64,000 nt of DNA from Methylophilus sp. (lineage in GTDB: Bacteria; Pseudomonadota; Gammaproteobacteria; Burkholderiales; Methylophilaceae), in the NCBI RefSeq assembly GCF_008015755.1, contig NZ_SSGF01000002.1, positions 60,204 through 124,203 on the forward strand, written 5' to 3'. How positions within the stretch are numbered: position 1 is the first letter of the stretch; each line of letters starts with the position of its first letter. This document shows positions 33,109 through 40,377 of the stretch, piece after piece. The position numbers and the translations under genes were made by a program. The notes under the pieces are model-generated. The model was not told where the DNA came from. It saw nothing but the letters and a program-made list of their open reading frames with translations, and did not search any database.

Positions 33109-33798
33109 TTACGCCTTGTCGCTACCGATAAACCGGTAAATCACCGCGCCCAATACCGCACCGATAATGGGCGCCAGCCAGAATAACCATAGCTGTGAAA
33201 TCGCCCAGCCATCGACAAACACCGCCACGCCGGTGCTACGTGCCGGGTTTACCGACGTATTGGTGACCGGGATTGAAATCAAGTGTATCAAAGTGAGGCA
33301 CAAGCCAATGGCAATCGGCGCAAAGCCTTGCGGAGCACGCTTGTCAGTCGCGCCCATAATCACCACCAGAAACATCATGGTCATCACCACTTCAGTCACA
33401 AACGCCGCCAGCAAACTGTAGCCCCCAGGTGAATGGGCCTCATAGCCATTAGACGCAAAGCCTGCGGTCACATCAAACCCCGCCTTGCCACTGGCGATGA
33501 TATACAACACGCCACCCGCGACAATCGCCCCCAGCACTTGCGACACAATATACGGCAGCAACTCTTTGGCCTGAAAGCGGCCGCCTGCCCATAGCCCGAT
33601 AGACACCGCCGGGTTGAGATGGCAACCAGAAATATGGCCAATGGCAAAGGCCATGGTGAGCACGGTCAAGCCAAATGCCAACGACACGCCCAGCAAGCCG
33701 ATGCCCACCTCAGGAAAAGCCGCCGCCAGTACCGCGCTACCACAGCCCCCAATCACTAACCAAAACGTGCCAAAAAACTCTGCGACATATTTTTTCAT
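33109..33798 (-). CDS. aqpZ: Aquaporin Z
   Basis: [12 protein letters not shown] and [10 protein letters not shown] (two NPA motifs). Confidence 0.97.
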
Positions 33799-33987
33799 TG
33801 CGCCCTCTCCTTTTTTAAATAGCCTATTGTAAGTATCAAACTGCGCGGCGGGCTAGTTCTAAAGCGACCCTACCCAAGCAGCTTGAGCGCCCAATATAGC
33901 AAACTATGGCCGCTTAAACATCCACCTGTTAAAAAATATTAATAGTGCTACTATTCGATAATTGCCATGCCCCACAAACCGCGCAAT

Positions 33988-34013
33988 AAAAAAGGCCGGC
34001 AATTGCCGACCTT
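33988..34013 (-). terminator. Terminator after the VOC gene
   Basis: A6-ggccggc-aatt-gccgacc-tt. Confidence 0.7.
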
Positions 34014-34031
34014 GCACCCTGCGCCAAGCGA

Positions 34032-34400
34032 TTAATCTACGTTTTGCCCAATGCGCCACAACACACCTGAGGGGTCGGTGATACAAAAATCACGCATGCC
34101 CCAGCTTTGTAGCTGAATTGGCCATACCTTAACGCCATAAGTCTGAATAATGCCACTATGGTGTATGTTGTCCCACCAGGCATCCACATCCTGTACCAGC
34201 AGATGCATCATAAAATTCTCGGCCAGGTTCTCAACACAAAAATCCTGCAACAGAAAACTCGCGTGTGCATAGTGAAAATAAGCCACACCGCCGCCTTCTG
34301 ACGCCATGGTAAAGCCCATGTCTTGATAAAACTGCTTGGAAAGCGCGAAGTTTTTGGCGGGCACAAAGGCCTTGATTTCGGTGACTGTGAGATTAGACAT
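34032..34400 (-). CDS. VOC/glyoxalase-family protein
   Basis: AFVPAKNF.LSKQFY, QSWGMRDFCITDPSGVLWRIG. Confidence 0.9.
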   Translation of the reverse strand: MSNLTVTEIKAFVPAKNFALSKQFYQDMGFTMASEGGGVAYFHYAHASFLLQDFCVENLAENFMMHLLVQDVDAWWDNIHHSGIIQTYGVKVWPIQLQSWGMRDFCITDPSGVLWRIGQNVD

Positions 34401-34429
34401 AGTTTAAAAAGCCATTAAATCATCTGCAA

Positions 34430-34762
34430 CTAGCGCAATAACAAATAAATACAAAGCAGCGCCGACGTCATCGACAAGCCAAACGAAACAAACAGCATCG
34501 TCTTATAAGCCGCCACCTGTTTTTTTGCCGCCTGCCCTGCGTCCTCCAACGCCTGAATCGCCAGCTGCATTTTTTCTGCCAGCAAATGGATAGACTCCGC
34601 ATTTTGAATCGTCGCTGCCTGCAACTCCTCGATCTGGCTCGTCAATACAGGATCCACCTTGGCGGCCTCAGGCTTGGCAGTAAATGCAGGGATTGCCGCC
34701 GTCGCCACCTGCGCAATATAAGGCGCCACCGCCTTTAGAATGGGTAAAAACTGAATAGCCAC
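34430..34762 (-). CDS. Hypothetical coiled-coil protein with C-terminal TM anchor
   Basis: GTG start with GAGG RBS; heptad-like region followed by a hydrophobic C-terminus. Confidence 0.7.
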   Translation of the reverse strand: MAIQFLPILKAVAPYIAQVATAAIPAFTAKPEAAKVDPVLTSQIEELQAATIQNAESIHLLAEKMQLAIQALEDAGQAAKKQVAAYKTMLFVSFGLSMTSALLCIYLLLR

Positions 34763-34882
34763 ACAACACCTCAATGATTGGCACAAATACAATAGCCACC
34801 AATAGTAAAGCCTATGCTTTCAGGCGTCCACCCTGGTGTGTAGAAGAAAGTACAAGAGCAACTGTGGATGATGTTTCATGAC

Positions 34883-34926
34883 ACCTAACGTTTAAAAGCC
34901 AGTCCCGCTTGATGGATGGGTTAGGC
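34883..34926 (-). repeat. Terminal attC, internally deleted (44 bp)
   Basis: acctaacgttt-aaaagcca-gtcccgcttgatggatgggttaggc; lacks the L' box and half of the central stem. Confidence 0.85.
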
Positions 34927-34937
34927 TGCCTCATTTA

Positions 34938-35288
34938 TTATTGCCTTACCTTGAACTTGTTTAGATTCTTTCCTAGCGAATCATCACCTAGATTCCATTC
35001 GAAAATTGCAGCATCATTTTTGCGCACGGCATAGTACCCAACAAGATCACTTCCCACCCAATCTCTTGGCACGTCAAAGTGGTAATGCAATTGAAAAACA
35101 AAATATTTTTTTGAAGTGGAATAAAGCCAACAATAGTATTTGCCTTCTGGGTCTTCCATGGCTGAAAGGTGCTTTTTCTTGGCAGCGTCAGTCAGCATGG
35201 TGCATGCTTCGGTCTCTGATTTGACTGCAGCATTTACAGTAAATGTAGACATCATTAGAACTAAGATGGCTGACTTACCTCTGTGCAT
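34938..35288 (-). CDS. Cassette 9: hypothetical secreted protein
   Basis: Signal-peptide-like N-terminus, 2 Cys, bounded by attC sites. Confidence 0.85.
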   Translation of the reverse strand: MHRGKSAILVLMMSTFTVNAAVKSETEACTMLTDAAKKKHLSAMEDPEGKYYCWLYSTSKKYFVFQLHYHFDVPRDWVGSDLVGYYAVRKNDAAIFEWNLGDDSLGKNLNKFKVRQ

Positions 35289-35294
35289 GTAGAA

Positions 35295-35354
35295 GCCTAA
35301 CGTTTGACATAAGGGGCGCGCTTTAGCGCGTCCCGCTTGATGGATGGGTTAGGC
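35295..35354 (-). repeat. attC (60 bp, CAT-type L boxes)
   Basis: Minus strand GCCTAAC-ccatc-catcaagc...cttatg-tcaaac-GTTAGGC. Confidence 0.95.
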
Positions 35355-35363
35355 CGATACCAC

Positions 35364-35762
35364 TCACTTGATTTTGCATTTATTACTGCCACGGGAAATT
35401 ATGATTTGCTCGGCCAGTTGACCATTCATGCCGCAATGATAGCCGTGCGAAAGATCAACGAACCGAACCGTATAAGTGTTACCTCTTTGTTCAATTACCG
35501 CAGCCCCTTCGTCGAAATTAATCGTTGTAATTTTTCCTTGATCAGACCACTTCGTGTCTTCGTCTCCACGTCGAGCGCTTACGTCACAGCTATATTCGCC
35601 GGCAGTGCTGAAATACTTAAGTCCTAATACCTTTTCGCTTTCTATCTCGAGTGACAGCGAGTCAGTGAAATGCCCTTTTCCAGAATTGCACTTCAAATTC
35701 TCGCCAGCCCAAGATTGAGAAATAGAAAACACAGCAATCACTATGAGAATTATCTTGGACAA
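35364..35762 (-). CDS. Cassette 8: hypothetical secreted protein (4 Cys)
   Basis: TTG start with GGAG RBS; signal peptide ending SWA-G. Confidence 0.85.
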   Translation of the reverse strand: MSKIILIVIAVFSISQSWAGENLKCNSGKGHFTDSLSLEIESEKVLGLKYFSTAGEYSCDVSARRGDEDTKWSDQGKITTINFDEGAAVIEQRGNTYTVRFVDLSHGYHCGMNGQLAEQIIISRGSNKCKIK

Positions 35763-35772
35763 TTTGACTCCA

Positions 35773-35830
35773 GCCTAACGTTTGACATAAGGGGCGCCGC
35801 AAGGCGTCCCGCTTGATGGATGGGTTAGGT
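35773..35830 (-). repeat. attC (58 bp, CAT-type)
   Basis: gcctaacgtttgacataaggggcgccgcaaggcgtcccgcttgatggatgggttaggt. Confidence 0.95.
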
Positions 35831-35845
35831 TTTTTAAAACACCAA

Positions 35846-36046
35846 TCATTCTGGAGTATTTTCAAGTTCTTGATATAAGTCTTGGAGTGCTTTGTCAAAA
35901 GAAGCTACAAGAGTTTTTGACATTTGAGCATTCGAAGAGCCCTTGTATTTTCCATTATTCCAAGCCTGAGACTCACGCTCTGCAACAGCTTTTTGGCTTT
36001 GTTTTTTCTCTATTTCCTTGAGGATTTCATCTCTTTTTCTCATCAC
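35846..36046 (-). CDS. Cassette 7, second ORF: hypothetical 66-aa charged helical protein
   Basis: Starts 2 nt after the stop of the preceding ORF; no attC between the two. Confidence 0.75.
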   Translation of the reverse strand: MMRKRDEILKEIEKKQSQKAVAERESQAWNNGKYKGSSNAQMSKTLVASFDKALQDLYQELENTPE

Positions 36047-36048
36047 GA

Positions 36049-36231
36049 TTAACCTGCATTTCTTATAAGTTCATTTAGCAATAATTTTGCTAAGACATTG
36101 TTATTTGATGAGACGGAAGCTGATTTACTTCCCAAGTTAACTGAACTTACGGTAAGCATTCCATCTTCAACTTTTGCTGTGGCTTGATATAGCTTGCCGT
36201 CTTTTTCAACTTCAACTTCAAATCTAGTCAT
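36049..36231 (-). CDS. Cassette 7, first ORF: hypothetical 60-aa protein
   Basis: ATG 6 nt after the GTTAGGT core. Confidence 0.75.
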   Translation of the reverse strand: MTRFEVEVEKDGKLYQATAKVEDGMLTVSSVNLGSKSASVSSNNNVLAKLLLNELIRNAG

Positions 36232-36237
36232 ATTTAA

Positions 36238-36297
36238 ACCTAACGTTTGAATTCAGGGGCCTGCTTTAGCAGGTCCCGCTTGAATGAGGGGTTAGGC
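36238..36297 (-). repeat. attC (60 bp, variant AAT-type)
   Basis: acctaacgtttgaattcaggggcctgctttagcaggtcccgcttgaatgaggggttaggc. Confidence 0.93.
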
Positions 36298-36302
36298 AAC
36301 TT

Positions 36303-36587
36303 TTAATTTTTAGCATGATTTTTCTTTTTATTAAGATAAGTGGGAATTTTATCTAAACATTCCTTTGATCGCCTTGTGATTTCATTCAATTCATTCTCGT
36401 AGTAGTAGTCTCGATTTAGCTCTCGAAGTCTTTTAGCAAGAAGCTCACTCTCAGCACACTCAGGAATGTTAGCATTAAATTCTTTCTGCAACTCTGGGTC
36501 TATAGGCCTCGCCCTGCTCCAATATAGAAATAATGCATAAATTAGAATACAAAGTACCAAAACAATTATCAGAATCTTTTTTGCCAT
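36303..36587 (-). CDS. Cassette 6: hypothetical N-terminally anchored membrane protein (94 aa)
   Basis: Start MAKKILII at 36587, 9 nt after the core site; the longer ORF-track call reads through attC. Confidence 0.82.
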   Translation of the reverse strand: MAKKILIIVLVLCILIYALFLYWSRARPIDPELQKEFNANIPECAESELLAKRLRELNRDYYYENELNEITRRSKECLDKIPTYLNKKKNHAKN

Positions 36588-36596
36588 TCGCGACTG

Positions 36597-36654
36597 GCCT
36601 AACGTTTGACATAAGGGGCGCCGTAAGGCGTCCCGCTTGATGGATGGGTTGGGC
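36597..36654 (-). repeat. attC (58 bp, CAT-type)
   Basis: gcctaacgtttgacataaggggcgccgtaaggcgtcccgcttgatggatgggttgggc. Confidence 0.95.
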
Positions 36655-36660
36655 CGTGAC

Positions 36661-37005
36661 TTATTTGTACCATTCAGGTTTCCTTGTTTTCTTACAGAAA
36701 TGCCGTGCCGCTGATTTGTCTTTTGGCTCAATCTCGGACTCTAACTCATTTAGTTTTGTAAGAATTTTTTCTTGGTTCTTATACTTGTGTTTGAGTTTTG
36801 TTAGTTTCGCATCGGTTCCTGTGCAGGATTGGCAAATTGACCAGTCAATATCGGCTTGCCTTTCTTCATCGTAACCATACTCACCTCGCCAGTGGTCGCA
36901 TGATTCGCGCAGTTCTAAATAGCTTGAAACATCTCTCGGTAAGGCATCTTCTGCCAGTGACTGGCAGGCAATGCAAAACAAAATGTATAAGCAAAGAAAT
37001 CTCAT
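36661..37005 (-). CDS. Cassette 5: hypothetical secreted Cys-rich protein
   Basis: Signal peptide ending SLA-E; LP.DV..R..CDHWRGE..YD.ER..C..CTGTD. Confidence 0.87.
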   Translation of the reverse strand: MRFLCLYILFCIACQSLAEDALPRDVSSYLELRESCDHWRGEYGYDEERQADIDWSICQSCTGTDAKLTKLKHKYKNQEKILTKLNELESEIEPKDKSAARHFCKKTRKPEWYK

Positions 37006-37008
37006 GTG

Positions 37009-37066
37009 GCCTAACGTTTGAATTAAGGGGCGCCGTTAGGCGTCCCGCTTGAATGATGGGTTAGCC
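37009..37066 (-). repeat. attC (58 bp, AAT-type)
   Basis: gcctaacgtttgaattaaggggcgccgttaggcgtcccgcttgaatgatgggttagcc. Confidence 0.95.
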
Positions 37067-37067
37067 A

Positions 37068-37589
37068 TTACCACATATACCATGATATGACCGCTAAATT
37101 TTCTTTTGGAATAAGCTCAATGAGTATCTCGGCATCCTCACGAGTAGCTCGATTAGTGAGGGTGTATTGGCTTGCCATTAAACTTAGAGGCTTCAATTTT
37201 TTGTCCATATTCGCACAACCATCAGATTTTGTTTCGTGAACGGGTTCGGACGAAATCGAGGTTTTAAGCTGCTCCCATGAGGTTTGAGACAGCCGTACAA
37301 TAAAACATACTGAATAATCACCATGAATATCGGGGTATGTAGCAGTTTTGTATTGAAATTGGGCATCGGATGGCAGGTTAACTTTAACCAAGCGTTGCAA
37401 CTCAGAAGTGTAAAAAGACTGAGGTGGATAGACTGCATCATAAATTGACCATAAAACCCAAAGAAAACTGGCGGCTAGAAACATGCGACCATAGCGACCT
37501 TTTGACCATAACCAACGAACTGAAAAGAATAATAGTACTGGAATGCAAATTAACAATAAACCAAGAATGATTAAACCTATGTATCCCAT
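37068..37589 (-). CDS. Cassette 4: hypothetical 2-TM protein with periplasmic domain
   Basis: Two N-terminal TM segments, then LPSDA..K.ATYPDIHGDY. Confidence 0.87.
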   Translation of the reverse strand: MGYIGLIILGLLLICIPVLLFFSVRWLWSKGRYGRMFLAASFLWVLWSIYDAVYPPQSFYTSELQRLVKVNLPSDAQFQYKTATYPDIHGDYSVCFIVRLSQTSWEQLKTSISSEPVHETKSDGCANMDKKLKPLSLMASQYTLTNRATREDAEILIELIPKENLAVISWYMW

Positions 37590-37592
37590 AAT

Positions 37593-37652
37593 GGCTAACG
37601 TTTGAATTAAGGGGCGCGCTTTAGCGCGTCCCGCTTGAATGATGGGTTAGGT
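37593..37652 (-). repeat. attC (60 bp, AAT-type)
   Basis: ggctaacgtttgaattaaggggcgcgctttagcgcgtcccgcttgaatgatgggttaggt. Confidence 0.95.
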
Positions 37653-37663
37653 GGCCTAGACAC

Positions 37664-38473
37664 TTATGAGTGACCCCATACCTTTACTGATGAAACGACC
37701 AATATGACAGCGAGGATGGGTAGAAGCACTGCTGGAGGAACGATACCCAACAAACGCCCACCAATAAAAGCACCCAGCAAAGACCCAGCAGCCATAACTA
37801 AAAGAAAATGGCGTTGTGCTCGTATAACGCCAAAACTTTGGTCTTGGCTATAACGAGTGAAACCAACAAGCATGGTGGGAAGACTGACGGCAAGTGAAAG
37901 GCTGCCAGCAAGTTTAATGTCAGCGCCAAACAACAGAACAATAGTGGGGATGAGCAGCTCGCCACCTGCTACCCCCATAAGTGAAGCAACCACACCAATA
38001 GCAAAACCAGCTACAGCGCCAGCGATGGCTAAAGACACCCCAGTTAATAAGGGTGCACTACCCGAGCTTGGCTCGTGACCCAATAACAAAGCTGCTGCAA
38101 TAACCAAGAGCAAAACGGCTAGCACACGATAAAGGGTTTTGGATTTAAGTTTAGTTGCCCAGCCGGCACCAAGCCATGCGCCAGCTAAACTACCAGCGAG
38201 CAAAGTAAGTATTACATCCCAGCGCCCGAGAATGCTTGAGAGAGGCACAGCAACTGCCCGAAAGGGCAGAGACGACGCTACAACAACAAGGCTAATGGCT
38301 TTGTTAAGAATAACGGCTGAGAGTGCATTAAAGCCGAATAGGCCAATAAGCAAAGGCAGACGAAACTCAGCGCCACCAAGACCAATAAGGCCTCCAAGTG
38401 TACCAACAGCAAAGCCGCTGCCAAAAATAGTGATGGCTTTATATGGATTCACATTAGATTCAATTTGAGACAA
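37664..38473 (-). CDS. Cassette 3: TSUP (TauE/SafE sulfite-exporter) family transporter
   Basis: Duplicated GGLIGLGGAEFRLP and SLMGVAGGELLIP signatures; about 8 TM. Confidence 0.92.
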   Translation of the reverse strand: MSQIESNVNPYKAITIFGSGFAVGTLGGLIGLGGAEFRLPLLIGLFGFNALSAVILNKAISLVVVASSLPFRAVAVPLSSILGRWDVILTLLAGSLAGAWLGAGWATKLKSKTLYRVLAVLLLVIAAALLLGHEPSSGSAPLLTGVSLAIAGAVAGFAIGVVASLMGVAGGELLIPTIVLLFGADIKLAGSLSLAVSLPTMLVGFTRYSQDQSFGVIRAQRHFLLVMAAGSLLGAFIGGRLLGIVPPAVLLPILAVILVVSSVKVWGHS

Positions 38474-38485
38474 GATGGTTTAGAC

Positions 38486-38545
38486 ACCTAACGTTTGAAT
38501 TAAGGGGCGTGCTTTAGCACGTCCCGCTTGAATGATGGGTTAGGT
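38486..38545 (-). repeat. attC (60 bp, AAT-type)
   Basis: acctaacgtttgaattaaggggcgtgctttagcacgtcccgcttgaatgatgggttaggt. Confidence 0.95.
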
Positions 38546-38890
38546 GTTTGTTTTAACATGGCGAGACCTTATAAGTAACCCTAAGCCAGCAAAAATTAAA
38601 ATAAGAAAAGGACTGAACCAGCTAACAAAAATGTAAGTGCTACTGGCTTCTTGAGCAATAGCTGCTGCAATGTATGGGTCATTAACTTCGAATAGCCCAG
38701 ATAATGTTAGCAGCCCTAACATTGGTAAGACAATAAGCAATAGCGTGGGGTTGAAACGAGCTGACAAATACGATGCAATGACACCAACAACCATTGTTAT
38801 TGAAATTGATAAAAGCGAAGGCATTTTATCCATGACTTCGGCATTGCAGATTGCCGGGAATAGCAAAAATATGATTAATGCAACTCTCAT
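38540..38890 (-). CDS. Cassette 2: hypothetical membrane protein (signal peptide + about 3 TM)
   Basis: AEVMDKMPSL...DPYIAAAIAQEA; stop codon lies inside the ACCTAAC inverse core. Confidence 0.87.
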   Translation of the reverse strand: MRVALIIFLLFPAICNAEVMDKMPSLLSISITMVVGVIASYLSARFNPTLLLIVLPMLGLLTLSGLFEVNDPYIAAAIAQEASSTYIFVSWFSPFLILIFAGLGLLIRSRHVKTNT

Positions 38891-39393: not shown

Positions 39394-40377
39394 ATGGAAA
39401 ACACACCTGAGGTAAAGCCAACGCCAAAGTTATTTCCTTCTATTGTAGAGCGCTTGCGAGTGAAGCATTACAGCAAGCGCACCGAAGAGGCTTATGTACA
39501 ATGGATTAAACGATATATTTTGCACCATGGCAAGCGGCATCCGCGTGAAATGGGGGTGGCTGAGGTGGAGGCTTTTTTAACGCATCTGGCGGTGGCACGA
39601 AATGTATCTGCCAGCACGCAGAATCAGGCCAAAAGCGCCCTGCTGTTTTTATATAAAGAGGTGTTGGGGGTGGAGTTGCCATGGCTGGATAATGTGACAC
39701 AGGCGAAAGCCCCAAAACGGATGCCGGTGGTGCTTAACAAGCCTGAGGTGCAAGCCCTGCTCAACCGGCTGGATGGCACGATGTGGCTGATTGCGAGTTT
39801 GCTGTATGGCAGTGGCTTGCGGGTGATGGAGTGTCTGCGTTTACGGGTGAAAGATGTGGACTTTGTAAAGCGTGAAATTCTGGTGCGCGAGGGCAAGGGC
39901 TTTAAAGACCGGGTGACGATGTTACCGGCTGCGCTGATAGAACCTCTCAAGCAGCATCTGTTAAAAGTGAGGGCGTTGCATGAAGAAGATTTGGCTGCCG
40001 GATTTGGCGAGGTGTTTATGCCGATGGCACTGGATAGAAAATACCCCAATGCTGGCCGCGAGTGGGCTTGGCAATATGTGTTTCCTTCCATCAAGCGCTC
40101 TATAGACCCGACAAACAACAAGATTCGCCGCCACCATGCTGATGAAAAAACGGTGCAACGCGCGGTAAAAAATGCTGCCAAGGCGGGCAATATCGCTAAA
40201 CTGGCCACACCACACACGCTGCGGCACAGCTTTGCGACACATCTGCTGGAAGGCGGTTATGATATTCGCACGGTGCAGGAGTTATTGGGGCACAGTGATG
40301 TATCAACCACTATGATTTACACGCATGTGCTTAACAAGGGCGGGCTGGCCGTGAGTAGCCCGCTAGATGTGATTTAA
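39394..40377 (+). CDS. intI: Integron integrase (tyrosine recombinase)
   Basis: [16 protein letters not shown], IntI-specific [55 protein letters not shown]; catalytic residues appear intact. Confidence 0.97.

Follow-up and report, generated by a model that had tools for sequence, protein, structure and literature searches.

The 64,000-nucleotide stretch of Methylophilus sp. DNA analysed here (the window) carries a small chromosomal integron, in which one cassette holds two very short genes, named A and B below, and no promoter of its own. Judging from its sequence, this cassette is a new two-gene module built from two unannotated small-protein families. The genetic and architectural side of this reading, a promoterless cassette coding for two proteins, can be held with considerable confidence. 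The full explanation that we favour, in which the promoterless cassette encodes a hetero-complex of two subunits with a conflict-related function, is somewhat short of probable, its standing being set by the functional part.

All cassette ORFs of the integron lie on the minus strand and point away from intI (Table 1). The closest relative of the integrase, which is 77% identical, was found in a Methylotenera MAG of the species-representative genome collection, and other relatives occur in freshwater and soil Methylophilaceae, Gallionellaceae and Rhodocyclaceae. The array contains about nine related attC sites of ~56-58 nt, running from 38952 to 34884 on the strand opposite to intI. The A-B cassette, whose limits were set with the crossover at G/TT (here and below the slash marks the crossover), is roughly the sixth in the array, and Pc and attI are to be expected about 3 kb farther upstream. 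On the minus strand its elements follow one another as ...CAAACGTTAGGTTTAAAT-ATG(A)...TAA-tc-GTG-ATG(B)...TGA-15 nt-ACCTAAC...attC...AACGTTAGG, and it displays the features of an integron gene cassette, namely GTTRRRY cores, a single 3' attC, the orientation of the array and an intI gene nearby. A first-pass annotation of this region had described a single cassette with two ORFs 2 nt apart and no attC between them, and this description holds, the 465-nt cassette having its own attC. The same annotation had named a cryptic attC between the ORFs as a finding that would speak against such a module; it was looked for, and no attC-like palindrome was detected between or within ORFs A and B. The GC content is 34.5% around the cassette against about 50% in the flanks and in the genome. 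An Rfam search of the cassette region returned no RNA family. A bacterial small SRP RNA (Rfam RF00169, 66 bits) is present at positions 227-323 of the window, on the plus strand.

Table 1. Features of the integron and of the A-B cassette in the window.
Feature	Position	Strand	Description
Own attC of the A-B cassette	35774-35829	-	56 nt; core 35779-35774
Complete A-B cassette	35779-36243	-	465 nt; from TT of the upstream G/TTAGG core to G of its own attC core
Gene B	35846-36046 (66 aa, GTG) or 35846-36043 (65 aa, ATG)	-	predicted antiparallel two-helix hairpin
A-B junction TAA-tc-GTG-ATG	36041-36051	-	A stop TAA at 36051-36049
Gene A	36049-36231	-	60 aa, ATG start; predicted beta-beta-beta-(beta)-alpha, unannotated small-protein family
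Leader TTAGGTTTAAAT	36232-36243	-	12 nt; remnant of attC core
attC of the preceding cassette	36239-36296	-	GTTAGG core 36244-36239, 5' boundary of the A-B cassette and source of AGG
Integron integrase IntI	39394-40377	+	327 aa; IntI-type tyrosine recombinase, divergent from the array

The leader is kept as TTAGGTTTAAA(T/C) in the window and in the homologous loci L001-L006 and L007-L009; a shorter version is present in L010-L014. In four cassette lineages it is too short for a promoter. No sigma-70-like site was found on the minus strand from 36244 to 37528 (about 1.3 kb upstream), and these 12 nt leave, as had been suggested earlier, no room for an internal promoter. The first ATG had been placed 6 nt from the core, which is correct when counted from the 7-nt core GTTAGGT (7 nt after GTTAGG). 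The AGG of the leader (36241-36239), 7 nt before the ATG of A, is the sole candidate Shine-Dalgarno sequence, and the recombination site of the cassette would therefore double as a ribosome-binding site. Cassettes of this array begin translation ~7-15 nt after the GTTAGG core (36239-36243; also 35762-35779 and 36590-36603).

At the junction of the two genes, 2 nt separate the stop codon of A from the GTG of B, and 5 nt separate it from the ATG. In most homologues the A stop overlaps the B start (ATGA), and elsewhere the genes are separated by gaps of 2-9 nt, some of them with a good Shine-Dalgarno sequence such as GGAGGA in L016; an ATGA overlap or a gap of at most 9 nt was observed in all seven lineages with an A-B pair. 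A stop and restart within 2-5 nt is predicted to give A and B translational coupling.

Genes of only 60 and 66 aa, in DNA of 34.5% GC where open frames are common, raise the question of whether one of the ORFs arose by chance, or whether a cryptic attC splits A and B into two cassettes. Four diverged copies (window, L001, L007 and L010) were compared. The dN/dS ratio of A was 0.10-0.12 in five of the six comparisons and 0.43 in the sixth, and that of B ranged from 0.06 to 0.24, that is, about 0.1 for both genes at dS values of up to 0.8-1.2. The substitutions are conservative, and the A and B alignments each retain many invariant positions. Moreover, each gene has tens of homologous clusters (70 with the A profile), merely 2 nt without an attC-like palindrome separate A from B, and the A-B cassette is mobile as one unit. 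The notion of a chance ORF or of a split cassette, which hardly deserves credence, is refuted by the dN/dS values, the homologues, the missing attC and the joint mobility. On these alignments A and B are to be regarded as real genes under purifying selection.

Homologues of A formed 20 protein clusters, and a profile built for the family matched 70 clusters (HMMER, 1.8 billion representatives, E <= 1e-3), nearly all of 55-95 aa. The matching proteins measure 42-138 aa in 69 of the 70 clusters, and the lone long protein (1485 aa) covers just 23 profile positions. The family consensus reads EVxVExxGKxYxGxYxVExGxLTVSSxxGSKSxQxGxxPxxxLAxxLLxELV. Its members, where they bear any name, are called 'hypothetical protein', and Pfam and NCBIfam scans of 44 of them gave 0 matches. 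The AlphaFold2 model of A, obtained from a shallow alignment, shows three or four strands and then a helix at the C-terminus; this is the beta-strand pattern and C-terminal helix that had been read from the sequence beforehand, in a model that is weak (pLDDT 64). For B, 15 clusters of homologues were found, or 45 with a profile, all 45 being 54-99 aa long. AlphaFold2 models B as an antiparallel two-helix hairpin (helices 4-29 and 37-62, pLDDT 94) and 35% of its residues are charged, in line with its earlier description as highly charged and helical. The tip of the hairpin, xERESxAWNxGKYKxSSNAxxSK, is nearly invariant in the pair-forming lineages. Both proteins lack a signal peptide and any hydrophobic segment, the maximum Kyte-Doolittle value over 15 residues being 0.80 for A and 0.32 for B, so that both would be cytoplasmic, as previously proposed.

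Searches of Pfam, NCBIfam, PADLOC and PHROGs with A and B gave sub-threshold noise only, and in PADLOC-DB v2 neither protein matched any known defence system at E <= 10. PDB sequence profile searches with both proteins revealed no meaningful relative. When the B model was compared with PDB and BFVD using Foldseek, only generic helical hairpins were retrieved (E > 0.8), and the weak A model gave no significant match, its PUR-repeat, PC4 and dsRBD leads all having E > 1. The A and B profiles were also aligned by hhalign with 16 neighbouring proteins, of which 12 were TA proteins (including MazE, PemK, YafQ, Phd, ParE, HicA/B, BrnT/A, DUF2283 and HTH) and four were others; probabilities remained < 4%. 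The statement of the first-pass annotation that the pair matches no TA family is thus upheld by Pfam, NCBIfam, PADLOC and hhalign. Among the 70 A and 45 B clusters, no A or B domain was found capping a large secreted toxin of the Rhs or CdiA kind, as sought for polymorphic toxin/immunity systems.

The co-occurrence of the two genes, a check that had been proposed with the module, proved to be strict among close relatives. A is followed directly by B in all close homologues as well as in seven lineages that have diverged further (protein identity 39-92%). Pairwise identities of A and of B are correlated (r = 0.97, 21 lineage pairs), which indicates that the two genes were inherited together with no re-assortment. 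A clear in-frame A-B fusion was found in P0040, a 117-aa protein encoded next to the end of a tRNA gene (A profile 1e-35, B profile 2.6e-13). P0075, of 121 aa and adjoining a phage terminase, is a probable fusion with a strong A match and a weak B match (2.7e-3). Both fusions read through under table 11. A third candidate, P0044 (138 aa), was rejected because it depends on a gene call that reads TAG as Q; the DNA behind it (L016, GCA_024449935.1, a 501-nt contig) reads A-TAG-GGAGGA-TTG-B and is an ordinary pair. Taken together, fusion, coupling and co-divergence suggest that the products of A and B very probably act as one complex. Distant relatives also occur singly. The A family has solo loci in L019-21 (adjoining a resolvase), L034, L035 and L042-44, and B-like proteins without A, 43-55% identical, are encoded in L024, L025/26 and L041. 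The partnership would therefore be specific to a clade and not universal to either domain. Independent occurrence of the homologues, which had been named, if coupled with no interaction, toxicity or phage phenotype, as evidence against a module, is seen among the distant A-like and B-like genes.

The A-B-attC unit was found behind at least five different upstream sequences, that is, it moves as a discrete unit. The junction reads G/TTAGGTTTAAA(T/C)ATG after differing upstream sequences in the window, L001/4/6, L002/5, L003 and L007-9; in the first four of these, which include metagenomic and MAG contigs, four different upstream attCs or cassettes precede a junction that is always G/TTAGGTTTAAAT-ATG. 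Behind B there is a homologous attC in L001-L009, a decayed one in L010-L014 and one of a different long type in L022, where the pair belongs to an integron. In L040, a 525-nt cassette of 97% identity is located in an otherwise unrelated array. L037-L039 are 99.4% identical over 3.7 kb to positions 33300-38600 of the window; the distal cassettes, including A-B, are common to them and the intI-proximal ones differ, which points to recent cassette turnover at the attI end.

Other copies are found in different settings. In a Nitrosospira MAG (L007-9/L015), a single A-B cassette resides in a mobile island together with a 421-aa tyrosine integrase (convergent), a SocA/Panacea pair, an AAA_15/AAA_21 ATPase and a large serine recombinase. 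In this locus (L007/L015, JAYSQR010000096.1) the cassette has an intact attC, lies outside any array and is preceded only by ...CTACTTTACGTTAGG; it may have been inserted at a secondary site of the island. L010-L014 (e.g. L010:3650-5370) contain an integrase-less islet of three cassettes between bamD (yfiO) and der. The islet consists of A-B, a 153-aa ORF and BrnT/BrnA; its attCs are decayed and the upstream core is shortened (ACGTTTAAAC). In L027-31, a decayed A-B cassette is located between a TIR-domain gene and ParE/HTH. The TA genes found beside A-B relatives are HicAB, BrnTA, ParE/HTH, MazEF and YafQ.

The 2.75-Mb genome has one copy each of A and B. B is absent from 80 related genomes, including 40 others of the same genus, and about 1% of the genomes sampled across the class and the phylum contain an A-family gene. 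A search of 80 related integron platforms with the A and B profiles gave no match at up to 3 kb from intI, and genome scans for distant relatives of A or B recovered no new ones. No A-B match was obtained by tblastn against the INPHARED phages, nor did IMG/VR scans for A and B give any match. The A-B module thus appears from its distribution to be a rare, strain-specific accessory cassette.

These observations can be combined into a mechanism. Transcription of A-B would come from Pc or from read-through of upstream cassettes only. The pair, with about 3 kb and five cassettes between it and attI, would at present show weak expression or none, and would be switched on when IntI shuffles it to attI, in keeping with the standard integron model (PMC13108822). 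The AGG that remains from the attC core would serve the translation of A, and B would be made by termination-reinitiation, in roughly equimolar amounts. The two proteins would then bind each other, the conserved amphipathic C-terminal helix of A (V46-I56, LAxxLLxEL) docking on the broad hydrophobic face of the second helix of B (L45, V46, F49, L53, L56, Y57 and L60), which would leave the conserved basic tip of B (WNxGKYKxSSN) free to contact a target. As neither protein has enzyme features, the complex would most plausibly act by stoichiometric binding through this tip and not by catalysis.

As for the target, a role of A-B in phage or mobile-element conflict (defence, abortive infection or counter-defence) is a tentative choice. 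It was ranked first because of the neighbourhoods (TA, TIR, PanA, AAA_15/21 ATPase, HEPN and prophage genes), the precedent of the V. cholerae integron and the success rate for untested cassettes in the defence study of that integron, which was reportedly about one in six. The neighbourhood evidence is confounded, as integron arrays and hot spots are rich in TA and defence genes whatever their cargo does. The missing homology to TA or defence proteins, the lack of a significant fold match and the absence from two phage collections count against such a role. A more specific version is rather unlikely: A-B would be an undescribed minimal two-protein conflict system, anti-phage or TA-like, silent until near Pc and composed of two new domains, a sensor or partner-binding domain (A) and a tip-blocker (B). 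A would then be a widespread small domain able to work by itself or together with either a HEPN (Ymh) effector or B, and B a 65-aa coiled-coil hairpin whose conserved basic tip would block a cellular or phage target.

Two tiny, overlapping and co-inherited genes on mobile DNA, repeatedly located beside bona fide TA pairs (HicAB, BrnTA, ParE/HTH, MazEF, YafQ), could also form a classical type II TA addiction cassette, in which a toxin and a labile antitoxin would stabilise the array. Among the recognisable cargo of chromosomal integrons, TA systems are the most frequent, and one distant homologue of A is encoded behind a HEPN-type gene, as an antitoxin would be. However, integron TA cassettes, e.g. 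relBE, parDE, higBA and PfiAT, carry their own promoter (Richard et al. 2024, PMC13108822), which agrees with what the first-pass annotation had said of them, whereas the A-B cassette has a 12-nt leader, no promoter-like site and the orientation of the array. Among the hallmarks of type II TA systems, the paired small genes are present, but an autoregulated promoter of their own is missing, and so are known antitoxin domains (RHH, HTH, AbrB, Phd) and known toxin domains; the hhalign probabilities against the 16 neighbouring proteins were below 4%. Antitoxins usually evolve faster than toxins, whereas A and B are equally conserved, with dN/dS of about 0.1 each. Natural in-frame fusions exist, and both domains are encoded solo in other genomes. 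The lack of a promoter and of TA domains, the equal constraint, the fusions and the solo occurrences all make a classical addiction TA less likely, and we regard it as improbable. Of the earlier proposal of a coupled two-component module that is a candidate TA, abortive-infection or sensor-effector pair, the coupling stands, and a classical addiction system is disfavoured. The premise that bicistronic cassettes as a rule encode TA or defence modules speaks only to base rates. The genes as they stand neither show nor refute a TA or abortive-infection label for A-B, nor do they show a sensor-effector system.

A small nucleic-acid-binding or regulatory heterodimer outside conflict, with A as a beta-sheet DNA or RNA binder and B as a coiled-coil modulator, is unlikely taken alone, and almost as likely as the conflict role. 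On expression, such a heterodimer would have a regulatory effect of use in adaptation to a niche. Many distant stand-alone A members have a basic N-terminal arm before strand 1 (MSRKRRGSREP, MPKRRQRSP, MARRKKVPPRP), a feature typical of small DNA-binding proteins, whereas the A of the window has no such arm and both A and B are net neutral. The beta4-alpha topology of A weakly recalls PUR-repeat, PC4 and dsRBD units, but these fold matches (E > 1) are not significant, and no HTH, RHH or other nucleic-acid-binding family was matched. Solo A genes are located in ordinary chromosomal spots, one set of them beside a resolvase, and most integron cassettes have no demonstrated conflict role.

The A-B pair, a putative conflict-related complex encoded by one cassette, can be compared with several known systems. 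Like the integron TA cassettes, A-B consists of two small adjacent genes, presumably co-transcribed, with a single attC and is mobile and located among TA cassettes; it differs from them in having no promoter of its own and no recognisable toxin or antitoxin domain, as well as in its array orientation, fusions and equal constraint. A preprint on the V. cholerae integron (Darracq et al., bioRxiv 10.1101/2024.07.02.601686) describes two-gene and 64-aa anti-phage cassettes. A-B resembles the two-gene cassettes Toutatis (tutAB) and Sucellos (sclAB) in being streamlined and co-localised in one cassette and in encoding tiny proteins (TutA has 64 aa). Unlike them, it shows no sequence or domain similarity (PADLOC) and no nuclease-like, methyltransferase or membrane component, and it is known from its genes alone. 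The minimal TA families HicA/HicB-DUF1902, DUF4258/DUF2283 and BrnT/BrnA (about 60-90 aa) are similar in size, operon layout and residence in arrays or TA islets; profile-profile probabilities are nevertheless < 4%, and B is all-helical while HicA is dsRBD-like and BrnT RelE-like. Generic gcu cassettes are likewise promoterless, with a short leader, AT-rich, strain-specific and unannotated, but the A-B cassette holds two co-evolving genes and not one, and the A domain is part of a wider unannotated family that comprises at least 70 clusters.

The products of most integron cassettes have no known function, and many cassettes have recently been shown to be compact phage-defence systems. The A-B cassette is a clean and experimentally tractable case, in which proteins of ~60 aa are kept together by selection, coupling and occasional fusion. 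If a defence or TA-like function is true, A-B would be among the smallest known two-component systems, and A, with its at least 70 clusters, would be a new small domain with more than one kind of effector partner. Should the pair not be a conflict module, A and B remain well-delimited new protein families for structural study.

At a single locus, L023 (550-1546), an A-family gene lies 10 nt downstream of the gene for a 258-aa PF09509 (Hypoth_Ymh) protein, which has an Rx6H motif and weak PADLOC matches to Aga_HEPN (6.8e-5) and PD-Lambda-3_B (1e-3). This arrangement could represent a HEPN-plus-A module. An HNH_2/MTaX1 gene is located near the Ymh and A genes. In L035, which comes from a high-GC genome, two A-like frames (628-906 and 1477-1690) share a single 3-kb stretch, and one of them is degenerate, which suggests that a solo A gene was duplicated and then decayed. 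A C-terminal KGxGW recurs in the A family (P0037, P0038, P0043, P0052, P0062, P0064, P0072, P0089 and the A of L027), and a basic N-terminal arm (RKRR..P) is present in many of the distant stand-alone members, the A of the window having neither the arm nor KGxGW.
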